Source: Rotaria socialis (taxonomy: Eukaryota). Taken from it: a stretch of 64,000 nt of DNA. Within the stretch, counting starts at the first letter, position 1. Each line of letters begins with the position of its first letter. The translations under genes and the position numbers were made by a program. The stretch covers positions 186,001 through 250,000 of the forward strand of contig CAJNYD010000056.1 in assembly GCA_905331295.1 (NCBI GenBank). Direction: 5' to 3'. Shown piece after piece: positions 2,592 to 55,622 of this stretch. The notes under the pieces were generated by a model that worked only from the letters and a program-made list of their open reading frames with translations, was not told the DNA's origin and searched no databases.

Positions 2592-3601
2592 ATGTCAACA
2601 TCCACGGGTGATCTTCCTGGACGTTTAGTACTTATTTCATTCAAACTCAATCGTATTATTCCTATACTTCTACTTATTCTTGGCACAGTTGATAATATTA
2701 TGAATATTCTAATATTTACTCGCCGTTCACTTCGTACTAATGCATGTCCATTTTATTTTTTGGCTTCATCAATCAATAATTTGTTTGTTCTCAGTGTTGC
2801 TTTACTTATACTTCTTCTGTCAAGTGGTTTGCAAATCGATCCGTCGAATTTAAATATTGTACTTTGAAAATTAAGAATTCTCTTTGTTTATTCATCTATA
2901 TGTTTTATACCATGGTTTATAGTATTGGCGAAAATCGTTCGATATCGACAAATGAGCGATTTACCGATGGCTAGAAAAGCACCTGAATACATCATTTTAA
3001 TTGTAGGATTAACTCATTTTCATGCATTGATTTGGTGGACAGTTGATTCTATTGACAATGATCCCTACTGTAATCTTTTTATAGATGATAATGAAATAGC
3101 TTTTCAAGTCTTTTTTTAACGTTTACTTGTACTTTCACGCTGGTTCTTATGATGATTTTTGGTTTACTCATGATTTCAAATGCTCGAAAACGTCATATGC
3201 AAATAGCAGCAGATAACAATACTCGAAGAAAAGATCTTTCACGTTCTAAAGATCGTCAATTAATACGAATGCTATTAGTACAAGTAATTATTGTTATATG
3301 TTGTACGGCGCCATTTGCAACTGTTAACATTTTTTATAAGATGGTGAGATATGCAGATGAACCAGCGTATAATCGTAAGATTAAACTATTTTTTGACAAT
3401 ATTTGTCGATTAATATTATATTTTAATCCAATGATTGAATTTTATATTTATACATTATCTAGTCGAGCATTTCGTACTGAAATCAAGCGTGTTATGAAAC
3501 GTGGATGTAAATTTGTATATGAAAAATTTGGTTTACAACAATGCTTTTCCAAACGTCAACAAAATCAAATAGTTGTATTAAGTTTAAGTGTAAGTCAATA
3601 A
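2592..3601 (+). pseudogene. Rhodopsin-like GPCR pseudogene 2 (tandem paralog)
   Basis: Paralog of 1665-2340. TGA at 2865-2867 replaces the Cys of LCKLRI, the DRx motif is deleted, and there is a frameshift at the T-run ~3110-3117. TM6-TM7 (KDRQLIRMLLVQV...FYIYTLSSRAFR) is intact. Confidence 0.8.
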
Positions 3602-4005: not shown

Positions 4006-4984
4006 TCCTATTATGTAATATTGCTCTTTTTCTTTTGTTACAATTTCGATGCTTTTTCCGCTGTAAAAAATGAAAACAAAAAACAACGAATATTATTCAT
4101 TATATACTTCGGTACAGTTTTTCTGTCTGTATGTATATACATATATTTATGTTATAAATGCAAACAAAAAGAAAGTAGCACAAACCCGTAATATTCTTCT
4201 GAATAAATTAAAAAAAACATACGGAAAAGAACATGCATTTATTCAATAAAGCCACAATCGACACGTGGTACTACATGAGTTAAATCAAGTTTTTCATCGC
4301 GAATTTCTACATTACCGCCAGCTGGTTTATAATCGACATTATCTAGTGAACCAATTTTAGGTTGAACATCCCATGTTAGTTTTTCTGTTCGTACAGTAAC
4401 TTGGGGCGTTGGTGGAGACCAACTAGCGTTGGCAAGTGAATTGATTTTTGATGATGCATTCCATTGTACAGCTTCGTCTCTGATTGATATTTGANTCCTA
4501 TTATGTAATATTGCTCTTTTTCTTTTGTTACAATTTCGATGCTTTTTCCGCTGTAAAAAATGAAAACAAAAAACAACGAATATTATTCATTATATACTTC
4601 GGTACAGTTTTTCAGTCTGTATGTATATACATATATTTATGTTATAAATGCAAACAAAAAGAAAGTAGCACAAACCCGTAATATTCTTCTGAATAAATTT
4701 AAAAAAACATACGGAAAAGAACATGCATTTATTCAATAAAGCCACAATCGACACGTGGTACTACATGAGCTAAATCAAGTTTTTCATCGCGAATTTCTAC
4801 ATTACCGCCAGCTGGTTTATAATCGACATTATCTAGTGAACCAATTTTAGGTTGAACATCCCATTTTAGTTTTTCTGTTCGCACAGTAACTTGGGGCGTT
4901 GGTGGAGACCAACTAGCGTTGACAAGTGAATTGATTTTTGATGATGCATTCCATTGTACAGCTTCGTCTCTGATTGATATTTGA
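4006..4984. repeat. 489-bp near-identical tandem duplication separated by one N (probably two alleles or overlapping contig ends)
   Basis: 4006-4494 matches 4496-4984 with about 6 substitutions; the junction is an N at 4495. Confidence 0.9.
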
Positions 4985-6951: not shown

Positions 6952-8524
6952 TTAAACTATGTTAGTTATAAATGGAGATAATAATTGAATGGGTCGATTG
7001 ATATAATGAATATATGCTAATTGTGGAATAACAATGTTTACATTTAAGGGACTATAACTATTATTGATTACTATTTGTTGACGATAGATTTCATAGCCTC
7101 GATAGAAGACCTAAATATTCAATCTTGTTTTTTATAAATTATATTTTCATCTTTCTTACCTTTAGAGTATAGACGCCTGGTAAAAGTATTCTCCAGAATT
7201 CTCCTAGTGGCGTTACATTAACAACAGGTCGCCTATTGTCAATCATTACTTGTGTTAATGGAATAGATTGATGAAACTCATCGCGTATGAGACCTTTGAC
7301 TCCTAAACAAAAACTAATTTCTTTCTAAGAATTTTTGTCTGTGCTTTCAACGATCAAACCTCTTTGCGCTTGCAATAAAAGTTCAATCATAGCATCACGA
7401 TTGTAATTCCAATAGGAAGCCAATAAATTCTCATATGGATATTTACAACATGATATTTCCATTGTCATTTCAATAGTACCATAATTTAAATAGCCATAAT
7501 CTTGCATACTACCAACGATTTCATACCAATCAGCACCACGTATAACTGTACCGATTTCATCTGTTCTTGAATCGCAATATTTATTTGTTTGCGATATTCG
7601 ACTAATATAAGATCTGCCGATCATTTGATAAATATCATCATCACTACTAGTTGAGACTTTTCCAGTATCTAGAAGAAAAAACGCTTTCACATTCGAATGA
7701 TAAAATAAAATATTTATACAATAACGATCATAAGGAACATTAATCATAAATGCACCACCGTGGTAATTTGCTGAAAGAACAAACGGTACAGCATGGAGCC
7801 AAGACATGATTGCACTGGTTTCTACAGCACGATTTGATGAAGGAAATGGAACACCAAGATAATCGGGAAAATTTCGATTTAGATCAATATTATTTAATGT
7901 ATTTCTAAAAATTTTCTATATGAAAGTCTGAAGATAAACATTTCTTTTGTTTTTACCTTCCACCTGTGGATCCGCAATCACCTTGTTGTGATAATTCGAA
8001 ACCATCAGGGTTCATCGATGGCATAATCCATATTCGAGCATTATTCATGAGTTCGATAACTTGATTGTCATTTGATGTTAAAAGATATTCAACTAAGTAT
8101 AATAATACTTGTAGACCAATGGCTTCGTTTCCATGCATATTTCCAATATATTTAACTTCTGGACGTAATAAAATATGTTCATTGGGAGAATATGAACTTA
8201 ATGCTACAGCCCATAATGATCGTCCTGACGAATAAAGTTATCGAACAGTTTTAAAAGGTAATTTCTATTTTACATACCTCCTTGACTTTTTCCTACTTCA
8301 TATAATATCGCTTTCGATGGATAACGAGAAGTGATATCATGAAGAAAATTAGTCATTTTTGAATAATTATAATAATGAAAATAATATGCTTCATTGTTAC
8401 TGAATACACAGAATAGTAGCACTACTATTAAAAAACTTAATTTTGTCTTAAACTATAGAGAAAAAAAACAGGCGATAATATTTTATAGAATATATTTAAG
8501 AAAAACAAAAAATTTTCATACCAT
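6952..8524 (-). CDS. M14B zinc carboxypeptidase (carboxypeptidase D/M/E-like, single catalytic domain plus C-terminal beta domain)
   Basis: Motifs PEVKYIGNMHGNE, MPSMNPDG, DLNRNFPD, LSANYHGGA, GADWYEIVGSMQD, EMTMEISCCKYP, GEFWRILLPG. Exon 1 supplies only the ATG (8522-8524); signal peptide FKTKLSFLIVVLLFCVFS; stop at 6952-6954. Confidence 0.93.
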
Positions 8525-11394: not shown

Positions 11395-12367
11395 CTAATT
11401 ATATTTATTGATAATATTTAAACCATTATGTATTGCTGTATTCAATGGTGAATTTTGTTCATATGGTGAGAATTCTAAATGAATAGCCGATGTACGTTTG
11501 ATAATTGATGAATTAATTTTACTTGTAAGATCCTAGATTGGTTTTTATTTAAGAAAAATTTACAAATGATATTAGTGTTGTCTTACACAAATACTTTCAT
11601 TGGTTCGATTATTGTTACCTAATAGAATATATCATAATGAAAAACAATCGAAATCAAAATAAAGTTTTATACATGCTTTTTAACAAGATCGTCTCATCAT
11701 ATGCATTTGTTTCTGCTGCTTCCATGTCTAAACTACGATCCATTTCATCATCTGGTTCATCTAAATAGAAGATATCGAACACAAGTTTTACATATCGAAG
11801 TTCGATAGAAACTGATCGGTTAGTAAACTTGACTTGGAATCTAACTATTACTCAAGCGCAGCATGTCAATAGTACTGAAGAGCATATGAGAGACGTCTAG
11901 AAATAGTAGTCAGTATCGTACAAACAAAATGTTTAATGAAATAAGAACAAACTAGAATACTAAGAATGAACACAAATGTAATAGAGATAAGCATTGTTAC
12001 GCTACAACTGTTAAATCTAGACACCTATTATGGTTTTTGATTCAAGTTTACAAAAGAAAATACAATTAGTTTGGTAGCATACGTGCTGTTCCATTGAAAT
12101 CGAGTGTATCAGGTACATTGAAACATGCTGGTGGTGGCAATGGTACTTTTCTTTTATTTGTCACAACTACAGAAGGTTCTGGAAAATAATAGATTTCTTA
12201 TAAATTTTCATTGAAACAACTAAAATTCTACCAGGAGTTGATGCAGCAATAGTTTGAGTTATTGAATGGAATTTGACAAATTGTTGTTGCCGACTTAGAT
12301 AATACGTCAGTGGATAACGAGTACGAAGTAATTTATCCAAAAACGATTCTTCTATCGGTTGAGCCAT
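11395..12367 (-). CDS. Uncharacterised ~155-aa protein, 5 exons
   Basis: Approximate exons 12367-12232, 12166-12082, 11760-11677, 11619-11588 and 11533-11395 join into one ORF (MAQPIEESFLDKLLRTRYP...KRKVPLPPPACF...HNGLNIINKYN*) if intron 3 uses a GC donor (gcatgt). Confidence 0.6.
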
Positions 12368-12459
12368 GACGCAATTGTTCGTTGAAACGAAGCGATACGT
12401 ATTATATCAGTGTATGAAAGTCACATTATAGACAAACGATGATGTCGCTACATGCGTCT

Positions 12460-12515
12460 GTTGAAAGTGAACTTTTGATTGGCTGATCGAATTTCACACT
12501 TTGTTTCGCGGGTCT
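12460..12515. promoter_or_regulatory. Putative bidirectional promoter with CCAAT box and E2F-like site
   Basis: About 210 bp separate two divergent ATGs; ATTGG at 12478-12482 and TTTCGCGG at 12504-12511. Confidence 0.35.
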
Positions 12516-12578
12516 TTGTCTTCGGAACCTGTAAGCAGAATTCAATTCTATTTTATCGTTTTCTTCTATATGCATAGC

Positions 12579-15500
12579 ATGAGTATAAACCTTCGTCAAA
12601 AATTAGTAAGTTAATTGAATTGAATCGCTGTTCTTTGATCTTCATGAATTAAAAATCGTACATCTATTATAGAAAGAATTGAACAAACAAAAAGAACAAT
12701 TCAATGAGGATAGTCAAAATGTTGATATTCAAAAAAGCTTTACAACAACACCAGTACAATTGAAAAAGACTGTACTAAAACAACAAATACTTCATCCAAA
12801 ATCGTTGAATATCAATAATAATGATATAACATTAACAGCTGAAGAACTTAATCGACGTGAACAAGGTTCGTAAAATCTCTGTTTTTTTCTAAAATTAATA
12901 AAAAAAAAAGGATTATCAACGATATTTTGTTGTTGTAGAATTTAACGATGATATGCAACGTGAATGTGGTCAAAATGCACAATGGAAAAAAATTCAACAA
13001 AATACATTTACACGATGGGCAAATGAACGTTTGAAATTAGTGAATCGACATATTGATAATTTACAAACAGATCTTGGTGATGGGTTAAATTTAATTGCAC
13101 TTCTTGAAATATTAGTCGGAAAAAAATTACCACGTTATAATCATCGTCCGCAATTTCGTTCTCAAAAATTAGAAAATGTATCTGTCGTACTTGATTATGT
13201 TGAAAATATTGAAAAACGACGTCTAGTCAATATCGATGCATCGGATATTGTTGATGGTAAAGTCAAATTAATACTTGGCCTTATGTGGACACTTATTCTA
13301 CATTATTCAATTACACTGCCAGCTTGGGAAATACCTAATGAAAAACGAGAAACAATTCAAAATCTTAAACCAAAACAAAAATTAATGAATTGGTTACAAG
13401 CAAAATTGCCAACACACATTAATATTGCAAATTTTACTTCGGATTGGAACGATGGAAGAGCGATTGGAGCTGTTTTGGAATCTTGTTATCCAGGTATTCA
13501 TGGAAGTTTTCTTTTATTAGACACGAATGATTTTTTTAAACATCATTGGATAGGTCTATTTCCGAATTGGGCTGATCGTGATCCAAAGCATGCACTAGAA
13601 AATGCAAAAGAAGCTATGGAATTGGCAGAAAAATGGCTTGGTATTCCACAGGTAAGTTCTACGTTGTCTATTAACCGCTACAATAAGGTCAATGAGAAAA
13701 TGTGAAAATCATCATCTCTGAGAAGGACTGTAGTACTCATAACAATTGAATTATCGTACTGTCGATTGGGCAGCATCTCATCTATTCGAGCACTTCCATT
13801 CTATTCGTTTTCGATGCAACAATTAGTTTAGTAATACGAAACGAATTTTTAAAACTTTTTTAGCTTATCCAACCACATGAAATGATAAATCCACACGTTG
13901 ATGAACAATCGATGATGACTTATTTATCTCAATATCCGAATGCGAAACTTCAACCTGGCGCACCAGTTAAGCCAAAGAATTATGCTCATCTAGTCAATTG
14001 TTATGGTGAAGGTTTGTAACAGAAATTTTAAAGAATTCATTTTCATATAATTTGAATTTAGGTCTTGAGCGAACGGGCCATATGGTTGATAAACCAGTTA
14101 TTTTTCACATTGAAACATGTGCAGCTGGTATAGGTAAAGTTGATGTTATTATTGTTAATCCAAATGGACAAACAGAAGAGGTTAGAATTCAAACAGCATT
14201 TCTCACAGAATAATTTATTTTTATTCTTCTTTCAGTGTACTATTGAATTCCGCGAAGATAGAAATCGAACATACGATTGTGCTTTCTATCCAGCGATGTA
14301 TGGTGAACATAAAGTAAGACTTTCGACAATATGTCTGCAAATAAATATTTTGTTTCTTGTATCCAATAGATTATTGTTACATTTAATGAACAAGAAGTAC
14401 GGCATTCACCATTCTACATATATGTTGATGAACCAGAGCAAATATCTGAAGTGTTAGATAATGATGAAGTGGATACAGCATGCAATGAAGTTACACGTAT
14501 GATAATCTTAAACAAATGATTTAAAAACAACAAAAACTCTTTCTTCCTTTGTTTTAAACAGCTTCTGATATCGAACAACCAGTCTATGAAAATTATAATC
14601 CAGCAAATGCTATCATCTATGATAGAGAAGATACAGCTGATATAAAAATAACAAATTTAAATGAAGATGGAGATGGAGATGATATTATTCTTCAAGAAGA
14701 TCATATATATTATGCTCATGTAAGTTTTTTCTTCTCAATCGCTCAGATTCCACATCAAGGCTAGTAAAATGAAACATCCATTTACAATTAAGAAGCCTTC
14801 CTTCGATTTCGTTTAATGTCAGAGATGGCTGAATCACATGTTTCAGTCGGTGAAATAATGTCCTAATCCTTTTGAAAGCGATAGAAAAGTTTGTTCTTTA
14901 AATTTTAATATTTTTATTTTTGATTAGCAAACACAGATTACATCTATACAAGATCATCAACTTCGTCGTCAAATCTCCACACGGTCAATATCCGATCCAA
15001 CATTAAATAAACATAAATTTTTCTCACCAATTAAACCACCACGAACTTATTGCCATGATGAACCTGACGATGAAATAGTGAGTTTCGTCTTATTTGCTCT
15101 TCATGGAATTTTGAAACAAAAAAAAATCATTTTTTCCTAGAATGAATCTCCACTGGTTTATAGTCTAACAGATTATCGTCTAAAACAAAAACGTCAGGAA
15201 GGTTTAGATCTTGCACAAGCAAATCGTGCAGATTCAATAGCCATCAGTTCAACAACACTGAATTCAACATCGTCCATTTCAATTGATGATAATCCACAAG
15301 AAAATAAACGTTTAACATCAAAGTGGCTAGTGATTGATGAAATTAGTGTAAAATTTTGAAACAAAAAATCTTTAATTCTTTTTGAAATAATCTTTCTTCT
15401 TATTTAAGCGTTTAACTGAACTAACAAAACGAGAAACATCAACATTAACACAAACATCACATGCATTAAAATGTTGTTCGAACGATCCACATGCTGCATT

Positions 15501-17243
15501 ATCAGATAAAAAAATCGAATGTGAACGTGTCATATTTATGGCTAGTATGTATTTGACTTATTTCCATAGATTTTACATTGATATATATATATATTCTGTA
15601 TTTCAGAACAAAAGCTAACATCATACAATAGTGAAATAAAACGTTTAGAAAATCTCGACCCTGATAGTGAATATTATTCATCAGATATTTCGCATAGTAC
15701 ATTAATTTTACAAGATATTCGATTATCAATCAAAGAAGATTATTTAAGATCGTTACGTAAAGGAAAAGGTTTGCACTTGTTCTTTTTTTCTAAGAAAAAT
15801 TATTTGCTTTCGTCTTTGTTTAGAAACAAAATTTTATTTTTTTATGTGTGCTGTTCACTATCGTTCACAAACACTTTTTTCACATATGGTTTCATCATTC
15901 GACACACTTCAATCTAATGGACAAGTCATATTTTCCAATCGAATGATTATAAGAGAAGTTGAAAGCAGTTTTGCTGCAACTATTGGTGTTTATTGCATGG
16001 CAAGTTTTTGCATCCTATGAACCTCTGGAAAATATCTCTCATTAAAATAGAATACCCTACATATGTAGTAAATCCCAGTAGTCTCACTTCGATTAATGAA
16101 GTACGTTCGCGAGAAGTTTAATAGAGGATCTAATTACTTTGCTCCATTGGACACTTTTAAGAAGAAGTATTTGTAATAATAAAATGTTACATCTATTCTT
16201 TTACTGTAGAAACATTGAATATGAGAAAACAATATTTTTATTATATAGGAAATCACGATGAAACATCCAATAACTGGCCTCGATCATTCACCCATGGTTT
16301 GTCCACATCATCATGTTTCATCATTGGCAAAGACTGTTCAATGTATGAAATGCGATAAACAAAGATTAAATAGTACCGGTACGTACTTTAATTTCATACA
16401 TTTTTCTTTAAGAAATATTTGCCATTATTTCTAGTATCAATACCTGGTCAACATTCAAAAACAAATACAATTCTCCGCGTTAGCAATTTTGTTCAAGTTG
16501 ATGCAATAACTATTCGTAAAGAAGATCTTAAAACACAAGAATTTATGCTTTCAGTAAATGAATTCGATATTAAAAATACATAAAATCATCTATTTTTTCA
16601 TCTCTCTCTTATAGATCTCATCCGCATCGATTCCATTAAAAGCTAAATTACACGTTAAACTACAACGTTTATCAGAATTAAAAATTCGTAAAGCTGGCTA
16701 CTTGGTATATTTTCGAAAGAATTTAATATGTTTAGATTTCTCTTTTTTGCTTTTATTAGACAATCTATTGCGATATTAGTGGATCAGGTGTATGGATTCG
16801 AAGATGGTTTATATTGACCAATGAACAAAATCTTCGATATTGGCCATCACCAGACGACGAAGAAAATAATGTGGTAAATCGATTTTATTCGAAAATAAAA
16901 TCTATATTCTGTTTCGTTTTAGCCACCTACAGGTGAAATTGATCTACATTATTGTATTGATCAAACGGTTAATCTATTACAACGTGAAACATGTGCTCGA
17001 CCTCATACATTTGAATTACGTATTGCCGTTCCAACAAAGAAATCCACTGATCATCGATTGTTCGCTAGTGAAAATGATGAGAATGATGAATATCCAACGA
17101 ATTCTATAATAGCACAACCATTCGGTAAACGAACACTATTTCGATTTTGGCTAAGTGCTGATTCAAAAGAAGATCGCAATGATTGGTGTAATATACTTAA
17201 TCAAATCTTAGCGGATTTACGCGAATGGGAAGTTATTTCATAA
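12579..17243 (+). CDS. Filamin-anillin chimeric protein: CH1-CH2 actin-binding domain, one filamin Ig repeat, acidic linker, anillin RBD-C2-PH (~1000 aa, 19 exons)
   Basis: Filamin motifs WKKIQQNTFTRWAN, NFTSDWNDGRAIGA, VDEQSMMTYLSQYP and Ig repeat CYGEGLE...HSPF. Anillin motifs PLVYSLTDYR, QTSHALKCC...IECERVIFMA, LQDIRLSIKEDY, GYLTIYCDISGSGVWIRRWFIL, RETCARPHTFEL and WLSADSKEDRNDW...LADLREW. All introns are phase-compatible. Confidence 0.88.
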
Positions 17244-17994
17244 ACACTGATCTGAATTTATTTGTAAATAAATACCTTTATTCATAGAGATCAGTATTTT
17301 CTTTTTTATTTGTTATTATTACGATTCTCTTTATGCAAATCAAACGTTCGCGTGTGTTTTGTCGTGTTTATCTATAATGAGTATATATTTATACATTTGT
17401 CGATCTGTATAGCGACGAACATTTCATTTTTCTTTTTGTCTGTATTGTGAAACTGTTTAAATATTGTAGAAAGAAAAATTATCGCATAGACCAAAAAATT
17501 TTTTTTTATTTCAAAAGGTTGCAATATGATTGAAGGGTGTAGATGTGTGTAATAGTATGATAAATTGTAGAAGAAGATGACTCGAAAACATTCAAAATAT
17601 AAAATAGTGAGTATACCATGACTCTATTGTTAGAAGTGTACTTATTTAAAGACGATGTTTTGAGTCTGGTAAGTGTGAAATTCATTAACAAGCGGCATGA
17701 TACATTTCACGGGCATCACGAAAATATAATAAATAGGCAGCTGACCTAAAAAATTGATCGATTAAAGACGTGAGTTTCTGCAATATTTTAGTAATTTCAT
17801 AGACAACTAGTTTATATTTGTCATGGCCGAAACAAAATAGAATCACTATTTCATAGGACTCAATCGAAGTTGTAAAAATTTATAAGTCTATTTATGGATT
17901 CTAATTTTTTTATGTCCAAGAAATAGACATAAATTTATATTATTAAATTATATATCATTCAAAAACTATGGTGAGCAGGAATTTAAAGGAGAAT

Positions 17995-19320
17995 TTATAG
18001 TCTATGAAAATTGATGCCATTTTTTCTTGATACAGCTAATAGATTTGAGCCGAATAGAACAACATGACAAGGAATTAAATCGTATGGAATAATTGTTTTC
18101 ACCTTTCCATCTTTTTCGACGTGTAATAAACGACGATTTTGATAATCAGCTACTAACCATTCATTTGAATTGATCGAGCAACAACGAAATGCTTTCCTTT
18201 GCTGACGTATAATATCAAATTTAAGTGACCAGATAAGTTCAAGTGTCTTCGATAATCTTAGTTCCATGCGTACAGATCTGTCAACGTTATTCGAAATCAT
18301 CAAAACAAGTGTTGAATTATTGTACGAAATATGATCAATGCATTCATCTTTCGCACATAGATACGGAGATTTCCATTGGTTAACCATTCTAATTGAAGGT
18401 AAAAGATGAAATTCCACAATCGACGGATTTATCTCATCTATTGATAGAAAAAGAGATGTATCAGAACATGCACATGAAAACCATTTTCGCTTCTCCATCA
18501 TTTTTAAACTTTCAATTGACATATTTCGACCATCAACAAGATAGATGCTACTTTTTCCAATAACAACAAATCGCTTTTTTGTTGATGACCAACAGATACT
18601 CGAAATGACACCATAAGGCCATTCAATTTGTTGAATTGTATTCATTCGTTTATCCATTAAAATCAAGTTTGGTGTTAAATGTACCAATAGACATTTTTCA
18701 TTGCCGGCTAATGCTCCATAACTTCCTTGAGGATGATTGATTGCTGCATCAATAATTGATAAACTGGATGGATTTAACTTAAAATTGTTCGGTTTATTAA
18801 TCGAAATTAGATTATCATCGATTGGTAATGGATCAATATTAACTTGATCATAGATTTTTTTGACATAGTCTATTTCTATTCCAACATCATTGATAATCGA
18901 TCTTAATGAGTTAAAATCTTGATCATTGAGTTCGTGTCTATTAATAAGCTCATCTACTTCCGATTGTAAACGATGGATTTCTGTTCGTTGATCATCAATT
19001 TTCTCGTCGATAAATCGATGAAATTGAAAAATTTTTCGTTCGAAATATTTATCAATCCGATTATGACATTCCACACGCCATTGTTCAAATTTTTGACGAC
19101 AGTTTTCAATGGCCGGTTGAATATTTAATATTTTAATTTGTTGATCAAGTTTGTTAATTTCATCATTCAAACAATTCAATGCTCGTTTTCGTGACCCAGT
19201 ATGTGCAATTAAATGTTGAAGACAATAATTTTCTTCACAACAACGACACAACGCACACGATTCCCTATTACATTCAGAGACCGTACATAGGAAAAGCGTT
19301 TGATTTTGACCAGAATTCAT
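17995..19320 (-). CDS. B-box-like Zn finger, coiled coil and beta-propeller (NHL-like) protein, RING-less TRIM-like; paralog 1
   Basis: Intronless 441-aa ORF; N-terminal CxxxxC...CxCC...CxxHLxxH, heptad region and beta-rich C-terminal half. Confidence 0.85.
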   Translation of the reverse strand: MNSGQNQTLFLCTVSECNRESCALCRCCEENYCLQHLIAHTGSRKRALNCLNDEINKLDQQIKILNIQPAIENCRQKFEQWRVECHNRIDKYFERKIFQFHRFIDEKIDDQRTEIHRLQSEVDELINRHELNDQDFNSLRSIINDVGIEIDYVKKIYDQVNIDPLPIDDNLISINKPNNFKLNPSSLSIIDAAINHPQGSYGALAGNEKCLLVHLTPNLILMDKRMNTIQQIEWPYGVISSICWSSTKKRFVVIGKSSIYLVDGRNMSIESLKMMEKRKWFSCACSDTSLFLSIDEINPSIVEFHLLPSIRMVNQWKSPYLCAKDECIDHISYNNSTLVLMISNNVDRSVRMELRLSKTLELIWSLKFDIIRQQRKAFRCCSINSNEWLVADYQNRRLLHVEKDGKVKTIIPYDLIPCHVVLFGSNLLAVSRKNGINFHRL

Positions 19321-19920: not shown

Positions 19921-21258
19921 TCAAACAACAAAAATAGTATATGTTTTTCTATAATTTAAATTATGAAAATGAATTCCATCATTTGCCGATACAGCCAGCG
20001 TATTTATACCAAATCTAGCAACACAGTATGGCATGCTATTATACGGTAGTACCGATTTCATTAATCCTGTTCTGCTTATATGTAATAAACGTCCGGTCGT
20101 GTGATCAGCCACAAGCCAATCGTCGTTAATAAGTGGACAACAGTGAAAGGGTTTATTTGGGCTCCACACGTCATTGAGTATAAGTGACCAAATTCTATCT
20201 AATGTTTCTGGAGATCTTAATTCAAAACGTACTGTCTGCTTTGAACTATTTCGAATAATTATAGCAATTTTTTTATTATTAGCAGTAATAACGTCAATAT
20301 ATTCATCTTTTTTACATATCTCAGGTGATTGCCATTGTTTGTCGAGCTTTTTCGACGAATTCAAAAGAATCTTTGTTATTGATGATCCCCATTCATTTGT
20401 TGATAGAAAAAGAAATTCTTTAAAACACGTACATGATAGCCATTTACGTTTTTCGATTGTTGATACTTTTTCAATTGACATAGTTTTTTCATCGACAAAA
20501 TAAAGATGTTTTTGATCAAGAACAATAAATAGATTCAGCACCATCGACCAACATATATCATAAATTGTCCCGTGACGCCATGGAATATTTTTAATTATTG
20601 TTAAATCTTGATCAACTAAACATAAATTTGGTGCTTGATGTATTAATAAATATTTATTATTACAAGCCAATGCTCCATAGCTTCCAGCGGGACGATTAAT
20701 ACTTTTATGAACAGGCGAAAGTATTGATAGATCATAGTCTTGTTCATTGATTCCTTTAATACTAATTAAAGTAAAATCTAATATTAATGGACGAGCATCA
20801 AGTTGAATAAAATTTCCTTCAATATTATTTATATCTTGTTCGAGTTGTTCACTTATCAATGTTAATTCATAGAAGTCATCACGAGTTACTTGTTGTTCTT
20901 GAATGAGTTCACTAAGTTTTGATTGTAAGTTGCCAAGTTCTTCGTGTTGCTCATCAAATTTATCCACAACAAGTCGTTCGAGTTCTTGACATTTATCTTC
21001 AAAATATCGATCGATTTCTTTATGAGAATCTAACCGCCATTGTTCAAGTTTTTCACGATAACTATTGACAATTGTTTGAATATTTAGTGTTCGAAGACGA
21101 TTATCCAATAAATTGATTTGGTCAATAAGAGGATCTAACTGACGATTAAGTACATTGTTGTGTTCATTTAAATGGATGATGCAGACATTTAGTTGACAAC
21201 AATGACATAGAGCACAAGATGTACGTCGACAAAATTCTATTTCACATACCTGAGACAT
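19921..21258 (-). CDS. B-box-like Zn finger, coiled coil and beta-propeller protein; paralog 2
   Basis: Intronless 445-aa ORF, colinear with paralog 1 (shared GSYGALA, KRKWxSC, QWxSP, WLVAD motifs). Confidence 0.85.
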   Translation of the reverse strand: MSQVCEIEFCRRTSCALCHCCQLNVCIIHLNEHNNVLNRQLDPLIDQINLLDNRLRTLNIQTIVNSYREKLEQWRLDSHKEIDRYFEDKCQELERLVVDKFDEQHEELGNLQSKLSELIQEQQVTRDDFYELTLISEQLEQDINNIEGNFIQLDARPLILDFTLISIKGINEQDYDLSILSPVHKSINRPAGSYGALACNNKYLLIHQAPNLCLVDQDLTIIKNIPWRHGTIYDICWSMVLNLFIVLDQKHLYFVDEKTMSIEKVSTIEKRKWLSCTCFKEFLFLSTNEWGSSITKILLNSSKKLDKQWQSPEICKKDEYIDVITANNKKIAIIIRNSSKQTVRFELRSPETLDRIWSLILNDVWSPNKPFHCCPLINDDWLVADHTTGRLLHISRTGLMKSVLPYNSMPYCVARFGINTLAVSANDGIHFHNLNYRKTYTIFVV

Positions 21259-22781
21259 TGAGTGATAAAGATAGAAGTTTATATTTGTCTGTTGTTAACT
21301 GAAATAGTAAAAAAAGAGAGAGAGGGAGAGAAAGAAAAAAAATGTGCATTTTTTTTGTTTTATTACTCAATGGTCAAATATAGTTGTGTTTTTGCAGAAC
21401 AAATGGAAACTTACCTTGATATTTGCCTGGTAAATGACAGAATTTTTATTTATGTTTTAATGAGTAACGTTATCGGAAAGCGAGACCTCTGTCAATATTG
21501 ACTGTGGACAATCTTGATGAAAAGCAATCATCTCATGAAGTCTCGTACTGGTTCGTTAAGTAATAAATCGTATCATTCTTAAGTAACTCGTCTTATTGTT
21601 ATCTCGTCGCGCAGTTATTGCAACCATCTGCGACTATTATAAAAACAAACATATTCCTGTACGAATGCGTATGATTCATTATTAGATTTGATAAATCATA
21701 AAAGCATTAGAGTATTTGTTTTTAAGTATTGACACGCATCTGTTAACTTGCGAAAATATTAACTGAAGTACATTTACAAGTTTCAAAAAAAAATTAGAAA
21801 ATCAAATTAAATTCGCATTATAAATTTTTATTTATTCATTCAAGTCGATCTATTGTTTTGTCATTTCATACAGTAACATTCTGCTTTTTTTACATTGATA
21901 TTTGCTAACAATAATAATAAGACCTTGACAGTAATTTTATCCTGGTTCAACAAACGAAAAACATCAATAATACAATTCATCTGAAATACAAATCAATATT
22001 TTTCGTCTTAGAACGTCAAAACAAATATTTCAAGCATGATATGAAAAATATCATATTTTACAAGGTAATATTATGTTTATTATAGCGAATATTACAACAC
22101 GTGCGCTCGAAAGAAAACAGCAGGCATAAAAAACCTAACTGTCCTATTGACATATTAGTTACAACGCATAGGTTCAATCAAGGAAAAATTGTGATAAGAT
22201 ATTAATTAAATATTTGCGTTTGAGAATAATATCAATATACTACCATGCTTCATGATTGCCTTTCATTGTCAATATAGAAAAAGAGACGTCCTTGTTGATG
22301 GCGTATCGAACCATTCCAATAAATATGTCACAATAATCGAAATATACAAACTAGACCTTTTATTCATTCATTTCTAAAAGAGCAAAAACTGCTCGAAATC
22401 GCGTAGCTAATAAATGCCTATTGAAATACTGAATAGCCAATTTATTCAATTCATATTTTTGTATTATTAAAAATTTATTTCCTGTTTCTACAATGTCATT
22501 TTCACCTTCGATTTTGTTTAATCATTCATCTAGATTCAAACAGACGATAAAATAATAGTTACTCTGACCATTCTCTATTTACTTTTTTCTTTCGTTCTGT
22601 CCATTTGATTAATCATATTCGTTTATCTTTTTCTTGTCAAAGTACTCAAAAGAAAACAAGAAAATTCATGACTTATATACATCTATTTTTCATCATTATA
22701 AAGAGCAAAAATCTGCATTAATACCTATCAAAATTAGCCTTTCATTATTGTATATAGAAAAACAATAGCAAACCAACTCGT

Positions 22782-43216: not shown

Positions 43217-45134
43217 ATGGCTCCATCTGGCGAGCCAAACGAAGCAACAACACAACCAAATCAACCAAATAATATTTGTCAAATCTGTGGAGATAGCGCA
43301 TCTATAAATAATTATGGAGCTTTGTCTTGTTCACCATGCAGAACATTTTTTCGTCGCAATGCTTTTCCTCCTGAAGTTTGAACATTCGACGAAAATTTTT
43401 TCTATTGTCCTCAGTATATGTCCTTTTTATTTTACAGAATGCGGTTGTTTGTCGCTATGGTGGCAATTGTGAAGTGAATATGTTAACAAGAAAAGTTTGT
43501 GCAGCGTGTCGTCTTGGTAAATGTTTCCTTGTAGGAATGAGTGTGGATTTAATTCGTAAAGAAGATTTAGCGAGAAAAAAACGAAAACGTAAAACATCAA
43601 AAGGTGAAGAACCCACTACGGCGGTATGTAAAAAATCAGACAGTATCACTATGAACTAAATAAGTGTAAAAGGTGCCCGTTTAGACGAAATAAATTCGTG
43701 ATCAGAGTTTTCGGAATGGAAAAATTGCATTTTATTCTCAAATGAAACCATCAGATAATACGATCTAAATACAACGGACTTTGATGGTCTTATATGCTCA
43801 TGTAAAAGCAGATGAAAGTTGCACAAGAATACAATAGCCGGAGAAATCATACGCTAATTCGTCGTATCAAATTCCTCCATGATCTTTTTACCGTGTGAAA
43901 TATTATCATACAATTGTAGATAATCTTTTAAGAGAGCAAGATTTATTCAATGATATTTTCGTTCGTCTTAAAGTAAAATTTGTAAGACTATGCTTCTTTC
44001 TGATCTTTCGCTTTGTTTCTCCATCTAGAATTTCGGTGTCGGCTACTCAATCGAATTGCCTAGATGGACTGAAATACGATAATGAAAAACTTAGCGTTAG
44101 GATATTTCGGCAAACAAATCCGACAATCTCCGATCTCCTATTATGTTTTGTGAAAGATAATATTTTATGTGTTACTCTGCTTCGTTCTGAAAATGGTAAT
44201 TGAAAAGATCCGATTGTTTCTCTGCGACTTTAAAATTTTGATTCCGCATCAATAATAACTAAACAAAAAGCCATCTAATTTTTCTTACACATCGCAATTT
44301 TTATTATTTCATCTCATTTAGACAATACCACAAGAATCTGCATTAGATTTGCCATCTCGTAGCAATTCTTGCGATCTCAGTTTTTCAGATTGGACTATAA
44401 TTTCAAATGTTGTACATGCTTTTAACACGTTCAGTCCTGTAGCCGAAATACGACGTAGAATACTATTTTTCAATACTACAGAATCCAATCTTCAATATAA
44501 CTTAACCCAAGCCAGGCATTTAATGTCTTCATTTTATAATGGTTTACAATCATTTATTAGTTCAACACCTGATTTTAAAATACTTACATTACGTGAACAA
44601 CATTCCCTATTTCAAAGAAATATGGTGGGTGTTTTATGCGTTGGTGGAACATATTTAATGCACGAATCAGGAATACTTGATAAACCTGAACATGAATCCG
44701 TTATTTTGTCTCTCTACGGTTCAGAATTTATTCAACAAGTTAAATTAATATGGCAACAACTTCATTGTGATCCAATACTGATAAAATTAATACTCGTTGC
44801 TCTTGCCTTTTCTTCTAATTATTTCATGATAGATAATCATGGAAATACTGCTGACGACACACTATTATTAGGCACATTTCGTCTATTAGGAAGTCAGAAT
44901 GTCTATGTTGAAATTATTTGGAAATATTTATTGTCTACCTATGGTCATAATAATGCAGTACTAAGATTTTCTATCTTGATTAAACAACTACTTACTATGC
45001 TTTCTTATTCAATTTATATGTATAAAAACAATATAATTCATCAGGCGTTTATTGATGATATAATCAAACAAACTGCAACGGAGTCAAAGGTAGATGGAAA
45101 CGCGCTTGTACCATTGTGGGGGAAAAAAAATTGA
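43217..45134 (+). CDS. Nuclear receptor, NR1I/NR1J-like, complete (3 exons)
   Basis: Exons 43217-43375 (CQICGD...YGALSCSPCRTFFRRNA), 43438-43623 (CRYGGNCEV...CAACRLGKCFLVGM) and 44322-45134 (LBD). Confidence 0.92.
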
Positions 45135-53463: not shown

Positions 53464-55622
53464 GTTTATACGATTTACTTGACACGGACTTACTTGACGT
53501 TGATTGTTTTTCGATTTTAATTGGTTTTTTAGCAAAAATATTTTATTTTCGTTGCAGATGATTTACTTGACGTTGATTAAATAAAAATGGATTCCAATTA
53601 GTCTATTTTTCTATGAGGATTTACTTTCCGTTGACTACTTAGACTTAAAAAAATGAGCAATTATTACGACACTAAATACATGATAAGCACAAAAAAAAGG
53701 AACACATATTGTTCATCACAGGGCTCCTAGTGGGATGGGATGGGACGAAATTTTCGTCCCGTGGGATAATGCAAATCGTCCCATCCCATCCTATGGGATT
53801 CGCTATATTACGAAAAATCTTACTGAAAATCAAGGTTTCTTTTTTTTTGTAACTGGAAATTCGAAGTTTTCCAGCATTCCGATTTGAATATTGGAATTAG
53901 GGATGCACCAATTCCTAGTACATTGCAAGAAAGATGACATTTTTGCCTGATGTAGAGTGGAGCGGTCCTCTGATTCCATATATCAGCCAAGACCATTTTT
54001 TTGCTCTATGTAAAACGATAGCTGAGATTTATGAAAGATTAAAAAAAGTTTTCGGATTTGACTCAGAATTTGAATTTTCAAGTCGTTTTCGGTCAAATCC
54101 AATTCAGTTTCAGACTTGCAGTTTGCATTACACAAAGTCTAAGAATAGATTTGAAAAGAACGTTCAAAACTGAACAGAAAAAAAATAAGTAAAAAGGCTT
54201 AATCCATAACTCCCAATGCTGAGAACATGTAAACATTGGATAAAAAATTCAAGAAATTGACGGGATTGGATCTTTTCCCTACTTAAAAATGACGTGCCCG
54301 GTAGTGAGAATTATCGATTGAACATCTCTTTCTTCATATTTTTCTGTTCAGTTTTGAACTCTTTTTCAAATCTATTCTTAGAATTTGTGTAATGCAAATT
54401 GAAAGTTTGAAACTAGGCTGGATTTGGCAGAATTTGACGGAAAACGACTTGAAAATTGGAATTGGGAGTCAAATCCAAAAACGCTTTTTCATCTTTAATA
54501 AATTTGGATCATAGCTTTTCATAGATCGAAAAAGATGATCTTGGCTGATATCTGGAACGGAATCAGAGGACGACTGCCTCCTACATTAGGCAAAATTTGT
54601 ATCTATCGTACCATGTACTAGAAATTGGTGCATTCCTGGTTGGAATATCATTATCAATACCTTTTAATTCTGCTTGTGATGTTGTAAACGAAATTTGACT
54701 TTCTCAACTGAATATTCCTGTTTATCCGAAACTAAGGATGATAATGAGGAAGAAATAATTATAGAAGGTGATATTGAACAATTTATAAAACAAAAGATGA
54801 TGATATTTTATTAAAACATTCAAACAAAAAGAACATTTATGTTTATTTCTGTTTTCTATGTTTTATCGTATTTTTTATTCAATTGTTCGAATAGAGCTCG
54901 GAGTTGGGTTAATGACCAGTACAGAAAAAGAATGATAATATTCACACTTTTCATCTATTGTCAAGTGTGACATAAATGAATAATAATTTTTCTTTAAAAA
55001 AATAATCACATTTCCCATGGGATTAGGAACTCATCCCATCCCATTAGGAGCCCTGCTTCATCAGATACTACGACTGACAAATCTACATAACTTGTTGCTG
55101 TTGCACTACATTTTAGTCATATGCAATACTCGGAACCATTTTAATTTTTTTGCGTTTCGCAAAATAACAATAACCTAGGAAGCATGCATGTTTTTTCCAT
55201 GTGTTGATTCGACGAATTTTCCAAACATTTTTTAAACAATACGCAACAGAGTTCATTAACGGTACTTTTATTTACACTTCTTAAAAAGAGTATTATGTTG
55301 ACAACCATTTTAGGTACTAAATCACAGAGCACTGCTAGTTTATAACTGAAAATTCAGTTAATCGCTCGCTTATTGATAAATATTCATTCTGATTAAAAAT
55401 ATTTTTAGAATTTGTTCGTACAGCACATTGACAATGTACCTGCTCATTTCTTTAAGTCTAAGTAGTCAACGGAAAGTAAATCCTCGTAGAAAAATAGACT
55501 AATTGGAATCAATTTTTTTCCCATCAACGTCAAGTAAATCGTCTGCAACGAAAATAAAATATTTCCGCTGAAAAAACCAATTAAAATCGAAAACCAATCA
55601 GCGTCAAGTAAATCGTGCATAC
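53464..55622. mobile_element. Long-TIR (Mutator-like/foldback) non-autonomous element hosting hAT copy 2
   Basis: ~53464-53658 is the reverse complement of ~55441-55622 (~180-190 bp); TSD not clean. Confidence 0.75.
53719..55055. mobile_element. Non-autonomous hAT-like element, copy 2
   Basis: TIRs CAGGGCTCCTA(G/A)TGGGATGGGATG; 8-bp TSD gttcatca/cttcatca. Confidence 0.87.

Follow-up and report, generated by a model that had tools for sequence, protein, structure and literature searches.

A filamin-derived actin-binding head inside the anillin of Rotaria and Adineta rotifers

In the 64,000 nt of Rotaria socialis DNA that we analysed (the window; contig CAJNYD010000056.1, positions 186,001 to 250,000), a single 19-exon gene at 12579-17243 (+) encodes a protein of 1035 aa in one frame and, with a GC-AG intron, without any internal stop. 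Two CH domains and one filamin Ig repeat come first, followed by a linker and then by the RBD, C2 and PH domains of an anillin (Table 1). We consider it fairly probable, taking all parts together, that this is a spliced and conserved chimeric anillin of the genera Rotaria and Adineta in which the actin-binding domain and first Ig repeat of filamin stand in place of the low-complexity arm of unfused relatives. It likely had one origin after the Didymodactylos split, is likely the sole anillin in both genera, and is predicted to be the division-ring scaffold that RhoA recruits and that would grip F-actin at one folded site.

The roles of the N-terminal arm of anillin, i.e., bundling and entropic contraction, myosin binding, and retention at the midbody ring, have been studied mostly by deletions and artificial chimeras. 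The rotifer fusion is a natural swap of this arm kept under strong selection and would test what the arm is for, with the unfused sister gene of Didymodactylos as a matched control that permits direct comparison by rescue and reconstitution. It is also a cleanly placed chimera of a core cell-division gene for which donor and recipient are both identifiable.

Table 1. Coordinates in the window of the fusion gene and its features
Feature	Positions	Strand	Remark
Coding sequence, exons 1-10	12579-12605, 12673-12865, 12939-13493, 13554-13651, 13864-14011, 14062-14180, 14236-14313, 14370-14496, 14562-14719, 14928-15077	+	
Coding sequence, exons 11-19	15141-15347, 15409-15544, 15607-15768, 15824-15999, 16249-16378, 16435-16553, 16615-16704, 16760-16873, 16923-17243	+	
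Linking intron	14497-14561	+	65 nt, phase 1
Linking intron	14720-14927	+	208 nt, phase 0
Linking intron	15078-15140	+	63 nt, phase 0
Linking intron	15348-15408	+	61 nt, phase 0
GC-AG intron	16000-16248	+	mis-spliced in several public models
N-terminal segment, aa 1-40	12579-12765	+	common to unfused Didymodactylos anillin
Filamin-derived cassette, aa ~66-427 (N-terminal flank, CH1, CH2, Ig repeat 1)	12841-14432	+	both ends within exons
CH1, aa 92-197	12992-13309	+	
CH2, about aa 217-318	13367-13944	+	
Single filamin Ig repeat, aa 333-421	13987-14414	+	Pfam
Acidic fast-evolving spacer, aa 428-469	14433-14623	+	3' junction of cassette
Anillin-derived linker, aa ~470-610	14624-15317	+	
RSxSDP in linker	14982-14999	+	candidate 14-3-3 site by what we take to be the consensus
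SPxK in linker	15024-15035	+	candidate CDK site, consensus likewise presumed
Pre-RBD motif in linker	15150-15179	+	weak similarity to other anillins
Anillin RhoA-binding domain	15318-15665	+	A639, E657 align to human A740, E758
Anillin C2 (Pfam Anillin) domain	15666-16686	+	long loop 16249-16475, few basic residues
CxxC in C2 long loop	16342-16353	+	common to Didymodactylos
PH domain, aa 887-1024	16690-17207	+	
3' UTR	17244-17498	+	end = where one RNA contig continues into extra A's

One spliced gene carries both halves

An earlier note, made from the sequence alone, had proposed that a filamin head continues through four introns into an anillin tail as one gene. The stated boundaries of these introns are all correct and preserve the frame, and the gene model, contigs spanning the junctions and an intron-less reading frame in a related contig agree on one gene in one frame; the intron of 208 nt is the largest of the four linking introns but not of the whole gene, which also has introns of 212 and 249 nt. 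Contigs from runs that we took, by guess, to be RNA skip at least 16 of the 18 introns among the joints listed, and the four linking introns are all among those skipped (no listed joint is for intron 1 or 17, and nine further joints lie beyond those listed). The two junctions that the note had singled out for an RNA check are both present in X9 contigs: one runs from CH2 (13373) to 15066 in the anillin-derived linker and crosses 14496/14562 and 14719/14928, and one other, with a depth of 4.1 and 37 nt on its short side, crosses 15077/15141. X10 and X11 contigs contain the 15347/15409 junction. None of the R. socialis RNA contigs covers the whole gene singly, and a DNA contig (X7) that covers 13300-16300 unbroken is possibly the source of the window's own sequence.

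The related contig L001 holds the whole fusion, with all four domain types, as an intron-less ORF of 1025 aa, and five more loci (L002-L005 and L011) link both halves, with linking introns of 48-60 nt where measured. These introns have the same positions and phases in the orthologous genomic loci L005 and L011, and two of them do so in L002, for which the spliced alignment is crude and gave one intron that is probably false. The genes flanking the fusion locus are conserved. At the protein level, the R. socialis record equals the gene model at 1035/1035 aligned residues, and P0133 differs from the model only by a retained 20-aa intron; a Pfam scan of P0133 found the full set of domains that had been expected, i.e., CH twice (122 bits), Filamin once (56.8), Anillin (48.1, cut-off 24) and PH (45.3). 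Records P0001 and P0002 start at an in-frame ATG 9 nt upstream of 12579.

These data confirm that the fusion is real. Two neighbouring genes, a misassembly or an artefact of gene prediction could still draw on the guessed RNA label, on X7 as possible source of the window and on the single low-depth contig at 15077/15141, but such a reading would have to explain away the continuous X9 contig, L001 and the five further loci with their conserved neighbours; it is already close to refuted and retains a minimal probability.

Donor, recipient and distribution of the fusion

Separate phylogenies, as the earlier note had envisaged, place the head with filamins and the tail within anillins. Residues ~66-427 group with seven bdelloid filamins (support 100/100, in a tree without Didymodactylos or monogonont filamins), to which they are 64.5-66.7% identical vs 49-56% to 17 other filamins, and a stretch of some 350 aa that spans CH1-CH2-Ig1 aligns to PDB 4B7L (E 1e-115). 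By these relationships, the head is a copy from the animal's own filamin gene that comprises the actin-binding domain and the first Ig repeat. Full filamins persist in the same species. In the order CH1-CH2 then Ig repeat 1, the fusion resembles these and other filamins (FLNA/FLNB, PDB 4B7L and 6D8C; bdelloid P0012, P0019, P0021-P0023), which however carry 22 or more Ig repeats (22 Pfam stretches in P0022) and a dimerising repeat, reported to be repeat 24 (PMC7216277). Pfam finds one repeat instead of the long rod in the fusion, and a PH domain at its end in place of the C-terminal dimerising repeat. We rejected the idea of the cassette as a symmetric phase-1 exon module: the similarity to filamin sets in ~8 residues ahead of intron 2 and stops within exon 8.

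The tail falls among named anillins from related animals. The five fused rows of the C-terminal tree form a clade (99/100) that is sister to two unfused Didymodactylos copies and lies within 17 unfused rows, with one change of state between unfused and fused; a 10-row tree with one distant outgroup did not place the root. Fused proteins occur in seven named species, all of them Rotaria or Adineta, and unfused anillins in Didymodactylos, Pomphorhynchus and Seison. A single gain after the Didymodactylos split fits best, though a fused Didymodactylos copy could be missed because its assemblies are fragmented and its gene models are described as made with BUSCO-derived parameters (PMC7943196). The view that no protein with such an architecture has been described has held up in the literature searched at record level and among anillins, where 0 of 149 other representatives carries a filamin head (150 of 452 matches listed; sequences within 50% of a representative hidden; 20 matches looked up by name).

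Neither protein searches nor word-based searches gave an unfused anillin of Rotaria or Adineta among the matches listed, although the latter are insensitive because they matched just one anillin outside bdelloids. Based on this absence, the fusion is likely the sole anillin of both genera. It could alternatively be a paralogue with a special role in muscle, at junctions or at stable cytoplasmic bridges, with cytokinesis relying on another, undetected anillin or on none. This seems unlikely to us: a syncytial body plan is also found in the unfused relatives, no unfused copy appears among the matches listed, and a 140-row tree shows the syndermatan clade without a second bdelloid lineage. Didymodactylos is, moreover, described as desiccation-tolerant (PMC7943196) and lacks the fusion. 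The same report attributes many retained duplicates and a tetraploid structure to bdelloids, anillin is said to act also at junctions (10.1101/282756), and with 150 of 452 matches listed the anillin searches were not exhaustive, all of which favours a paralogue.

An internal swap of the anillin arm

The earlier note had described the N-terminus of anillin as replaced. A filamin head is indeed present, but it sits inside the anillin gene, of which the first ~40 residues are kept: aa 1-40 are shared with unfused Didymodactylos anillin (0/1000 shuffles as high), and the fusion matches it again after ~470. The Didymodactylos carnosus protein (P0006, P0165) also shares the linker motifs, the CxxC loop and a 69% identical tail, whereas about 350 aa of low complexity with two FE motifs stand where the fusion has its head. 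The swap is an internal one, with the cassette in place of the low-complexity arm with repeated FE motifs of unfused relatives. Six unfused clade members have 2, 2, 3, 3, 1 and 0 such motifs and 5/5 fusions have none, by a pattern first drawn up after the sequences were seen; a stricter version built on three proteins matches 26/110 new anillins vs 0.6% of shuffles. We infer that FE motifs bind actin. Between the Didymodactylos arm and Anopheles anillin, only short motifs are common, without overall similarity (281/500 and 307/500 shuffles as high).

Within the retained segment, a helix is predicted at aa 2-19, in which residues 5, 9, 12, 16 and 19 are L/L/L/K/F(Y), and this heptad-like pattern is kept in four fusions and Didymodactylos. 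In an AlphaFold model that is poor as a whole (nine near-identical sequences, mean pLDDT 37), the helix is one of the better-predicted stretches. Were the fusion to dimerise, probably through this helix, it would be a small filamin-like crosslinker targeted to the ring by RhoA, and the bundling of ordinary anillin would be restored. We see some chance of this, though a low one, given that the helix spans only about 2.5 heptads, with a Lys in the core, and was there before the fusion, and that the dimerising repeat of filamin is missing. The helix as start of an Anillin_N motif was rejected, as a profile of 41 non-bdelloid anillins gave no score above shuffles. Residues 1-65 score against four filamin N-termini such that 2-25 of 1000 shuffles are as high, probably from overlap near aa 60-65.

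Values of dN/dS (0.03-0.38 for the fusion; against L001, 0.07 for CH1-CH2, 0.03 for RBD, 0.05 for C2 and 0.13 for PH) show purifying selection at the sequence level. The heads of R. socialis and A. steineri are 88.6% identical and so are conserved to the same degree as true filamin heads (86.9-88.3%), and 56 of the 65 CH1 columns that are invariant in seven filamins are also invariant in five fusions. In what we take to be the limits of two central actin-contact segments, 8/8 and 13/15 invariant positions are kept. This conservation makes it improbable that the head binds actin weakly or is kept in a closed state and acts chiefly as a spacer or regulatory module, leaving the work to the tail alone. 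For such a role speak the long stem branch of the head (0.48), the 20 filamin-invariant columns (seven filamins) that differ in 5/5 fusions, and published reports that CH2 can block CH1 (PMC7688639) and that human anillin without its actin domain rescued junctional myosin (10.1101/282756). Against the main reading, some head residues directly ahead of CH1 depart from those of filamin; at aa 83, for example, C stands in place of L.

Anillin tail and proposed function

The tail aligns to PDB 4XH3 (E 5e-41); its C2 domain scores above the cut-off of Pfam Anillin, and a PH domain follows at the C-terminus. The tail shares the RBD-C2-PH order, RhoA-contact residues and tree position with animal anillins (human ANLN, PDB 4XH3/4XOI/2Y7B; Drosophila Anillin; C. 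elegans ANI-1), and the pre-RBD motif is weakly similar. Instead of their actin/myosin-binding arm, the fusion has the folded CH-CH-Ig cassette and no Pfam match to Anillin_N. An HR1 domain, which in rhotekins precedes the Anillin and PH domains, likewise has no Pfam match; rhotekins were not knowingly among the rows of the trees. A639/E657 are kept in 5/5 fusions, with human numbering fixed via 887KK888 and the 1124-aa length (PMC7353161), and the human counterparts are reported to be needed for RhoA binding (10.1101/282756; PMC12013513). The C2 loop appears to be Cys/His-rich instead of basic, with 5-7 K/R in fusions vs 7-22 in 12/15 non-bdelloid rows (two unfused relatives have only 6), and human 887KK888, the C-terminal NLS, aligns to KH, so that lipid or importin binding may differ. 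This loop change is older than the fusion. In the Atlas, the tail falls in anillin clusters and the whole protein has no usable match, neither of which shows anything on novelty.

We propose that GTP-RhoA would recruit the RBD at the furrow, that C2 and PH would hold membrane and septins, and that CH1 would bind actin. Since it has a single actin-binding domain and lacks the dimerising repeat of filamin, the protein would link actin to the membrane without bundling it; the myosin-binding region of the ancestor is apparently gone. Its likely role would then be that of a ring scaffold that RhoA recruits and that binds actin at one site. The coupling of F-actin to Rho/septin membrane, as suggested in the earlier note, is something that ordinary anillin already does; what is new is the manner of gripping actin. 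A syncytial epidermis is common to the whole group of bdelloids, Pomphorhynchus and Seison, and a role at syncytial bridges, also suggested before, finds no support in these data, with the anillins of Didymodactylos, Pomphorhynchus and Seison being unfused.

Chances are about even for the further-reaching view that a major bdelloid lineage divides with this re-engineered anillin as its only copy, one folded filamin head replacing a multivalent actin/myosin arm. Animal cytokinesis could then do without actin bundling and myosin binding by anillin, whose core job would be that of a RhoA-gated actin-membrane tether. In C2, the Cys/His loop that is specific to bdelloids may bind metal in lieu of a basic lipid patch. 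Monomeric anillin is reported to bundle actin via several sites (PMC8319318). As a precedent for the main reading, the AH domain of anillin is reported to have restored junction contractility when fused to alpha-catenin and to have largely rescued cytokinesis when fused to MRLC (10.1101/282756). Like the fusion, these chimeras join an anillin tail to a foreign targeting module, but they are laboratory constructs, whereas the rotifer swap arose in nature, involves an actin-binding domain and is maintained by purifying selection.

One gene and one transcript

The gene at 12579-17243 reads as a 19-exon model of 1035 aa without an internal stop, as judged from a splice-signal scan and sequence reading of 11500-18500, and this open reading needs a GC-AG intron at 16000-16248. 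The four introns linking the filamin-derived head to the anillin tail have exactly the boundaries proposed in the earlier note. When 18 single-exon pieces were searched with Pfam, the matches were CH (exon 3), Anillin (exon 14) and PH (exon 19). The public Rotaria socialis protein P0133, which equals the model at 1035/1035 aligned residues except for one retained 60-nt intron, carries CH twice, Filamin once, Anillin and PH, each above cut-off, in line with the architecture claimed earlier; R. magnacalcarata P0131 is identical to the model at 1021 of 1033 residues.

Several public R. socialis models keep intron 3 (13494-13553, open in frame) as coding sequence and/or overlook the GC donor of 16000-16248 (records with such errors: P0001, P0130, P0133 and P0136), and missing the donor removes 25 aa of C2. 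Due to this mis-splicing, P0001 scores 23.9 for Pfam Anillin against a cut-off of 24, so the fusion can escape architecture searches.

Contigs from five presumed-RNA runs of three studies were aligned to the gene; among the joints listed, they lack 16 of the model's 18 introns. Both junctions predicted between the halves are joined: 14719/14928 by record 15 of run X9, which runs from 13373 in CH2 to 15066, also across 14496/14562, and thus connects the filamin head to the anillin-derived linker, and 15077/15141 by a single contig (X9 record 17). Record 4 of run X11 covers 15183-15766; no contig spans the entire gene among the R. socialis contigs of these five runs. Metagenome locus L001 holds an intron-less ORF of 1025 aa, 78% identical to the fusion and with all four domain types, that is likely transcript-derived. 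Across the 11 loci found, both halves are present in six, while the other five are truncated at a contig end or contain the tail only; flanking genes are conserved at related loci, and the linking introns of L005 and L011 (48-60 nt) occupy the same codons in the same phases. A misassembly or two separate genes can nearly be excluded, and an artefact is very unlikely.

Distribution and origin of the filamin cassette

Full-length fused records occur in at least seven named species, five of Rotaria (R. socialis, R. magnacalcarata, R. sordida, R. sp. Silwood1 and R. sp. Silwood2) and two of Adineta (A. steineri and A. vaga), tallied from the members listed for two large clusters (15/33 and 15/26). 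An anillin tail was found in 39 of 165 proteins compared, 28 of them with a filamin head too; the 11 tail-only proteins are three from Didymodactylos, an Anopheles anillin and fragments. That the fusion is a specialised paralogue rather than the working anillin of Rotaria and Adineta appears quite unlikely. Didymodactylos carnosus, a distant outgroup to these genera as reported in PMC7943196, has two anillin copies, with a tail 69% identical to that of the fusion and no CH domain. A HMMER search with the tail returned 452 representatives, and the head profile, run on the matches listed (150 of 452), detected a filamin head in 0/149 new anillin representatives (best E 0.09), a partial census because representatives conceal cluster members. 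At least 300 residues precede the RBD in 110 of these 149.

Full filamins are still present in species with the fusion. In a tree of 31 rows, composed without Didymodactylos or monogonont filamin, the head (aa ~66-427) clusters on a long stem with 7 bdelloid filamins (support 100/100). A filamin-like paralogue in DNA run X7 (record 10), aligned to 13647-13870, has no counterpart of the fusion's intron 13652-13863, so the fusion and one or more filamin copies differ in intron content. The linker from ~aa 470 is common to the fusion and the Didymodactylos anillins (E 1e-21), and the N-terminus matches the unfused P0006 with a score of 80 that 0/1000 shuffles reached (5-17/1000 for the truncated P0165). 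The filamin cassette thus lies inside an anillin gene, and since both its ends fall within exons, the gene structure does not point to simple shuffling through introns.

A tail tree of 22 rows unites the five fused rows in a single clade (99/100) whose sister is Didymodactylos, and implies a single change of state. Unfused relatives include the anillins of Pomphorhynchus and Seison, which are long branches in this tree, and two further full-length proteins of the same clade. The replaced arm carries repeated motifs ending in FE, two per Didymodactylos copy and 3, 3, 1 and 0 in four other relatives, and none of the five fusions has any. A stricter pattern occurs in 26/110 other anillins versus 0.6% of shuffles; judging from sequence, these motifs may be ancestral actin-binding sites.

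Predicted function and novelty

We consider it probable that the fusion is the working anillin of Rotaria and Adineta: RhoA would recruit the tail, C2 and PH would hold membrane and septins, and the single filamin head would grip actin. Engineered chimeras reportedly show that an anillin tail works with a foreign targeting module (10.1101/282756), and the Drosophila anillin N-terminus is described as mediating midbody-ring retention (PMC3824009). An ordinary anillin monomer is reported to bundle actin via several sites (PMC8319318) and filamin dimerisation to require repeat 24 (PMC7216277), so a monomeric fusion would tether rather than bundle; a dimeric crosslinker is unlikely.

Actin contacts are reported to reside in CH1 (PMC7688639, PMC7442826). 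Filamin-invariant columns are kept at 56/65 in CH1, 44/51 in CH2 and 21/34 in the Ig repeat, and a weak or closed head is highly improbable. The exact residue ranges of the CH1 contacts are presumptive. Human A740 and E758 (numbering as in PMC7353161), reportedly needed for anillin-RhoA binding (10.1101/282756, PMC12013513), align to A639 and E657 of the fusion in an alignment to human anillin 4XH3; E657 is conserved in 22/22 rows of the tail tree and A639 in 21/22. The C2 loop, rich in lysine in the human protein, has 5-7 K/R plus CxxC in all seven bdelloid rows, fused and unfused, hence this change is older than the fusion. Relative to L001, dN/dS is 0.03-0.22 for the domains, and the N-terminus and linkers give 0.17-0.38, rough values because dS is at least 1.0.

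The C2 loop, at 16249-16475, combines CxxC with upstream Cys/His, is bdelloid-specific in fused and unfused copies alike, and is absent from other anillins examined; these residues could possibly form a metal site.

Public records annotate the fusion only as unnamed or hypothetical proteins, and we found no report of an anillin-filamin fusion in rotifers in the literature searched (titles and abstract openings, subscription journals mostly outside). Since its two halves are modules already known and it probably does what anillin usually does, the fusion does not amount to a new kind of system. The fusion itself is real; the coupling between actin and Rho/septin membrane domains proposed earlier is not new, and a role at syncytial bridges is unsupported. 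The interest lies in a real swap that can be placed on a tree and comes with a natural control.

Other features of the window

Features surrounding the fusion gene
Feature	Position	Strand	Remark
Spliced, expressed gene	11531-12415	-	head-to-head with the fusion; RNA cover stops ~160 nt from its ATG
Two tandem intron-less paralogues, ~440 aa	17998-19329; 19924-21294	-	Cys/His-rich N-terminus; no Pfam match
Direct repeat, 489 nt	4006-4494; 4496-4984		98.8% identical, single N between copies; possibly an assembly duplication
Inverted repeats, ~92% identity	33783-35174; 53719-55055		~20 kb apart, each internally inverted-similar; possibly mobile-element copies
Zinc carboxypeptidase exon	7328-7915	-
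7TM receptor exon	3095-3598	+
Two related ORFs, ~270 aa	37413-38237; 44322-45131	+	no Pfam match

The head-to-head arrangement is retained in L005 and partly in L002, and DNA related to the tandem paralogues lies downstream of the fusion orthologue in L003, L004, L007, L008 and L010.
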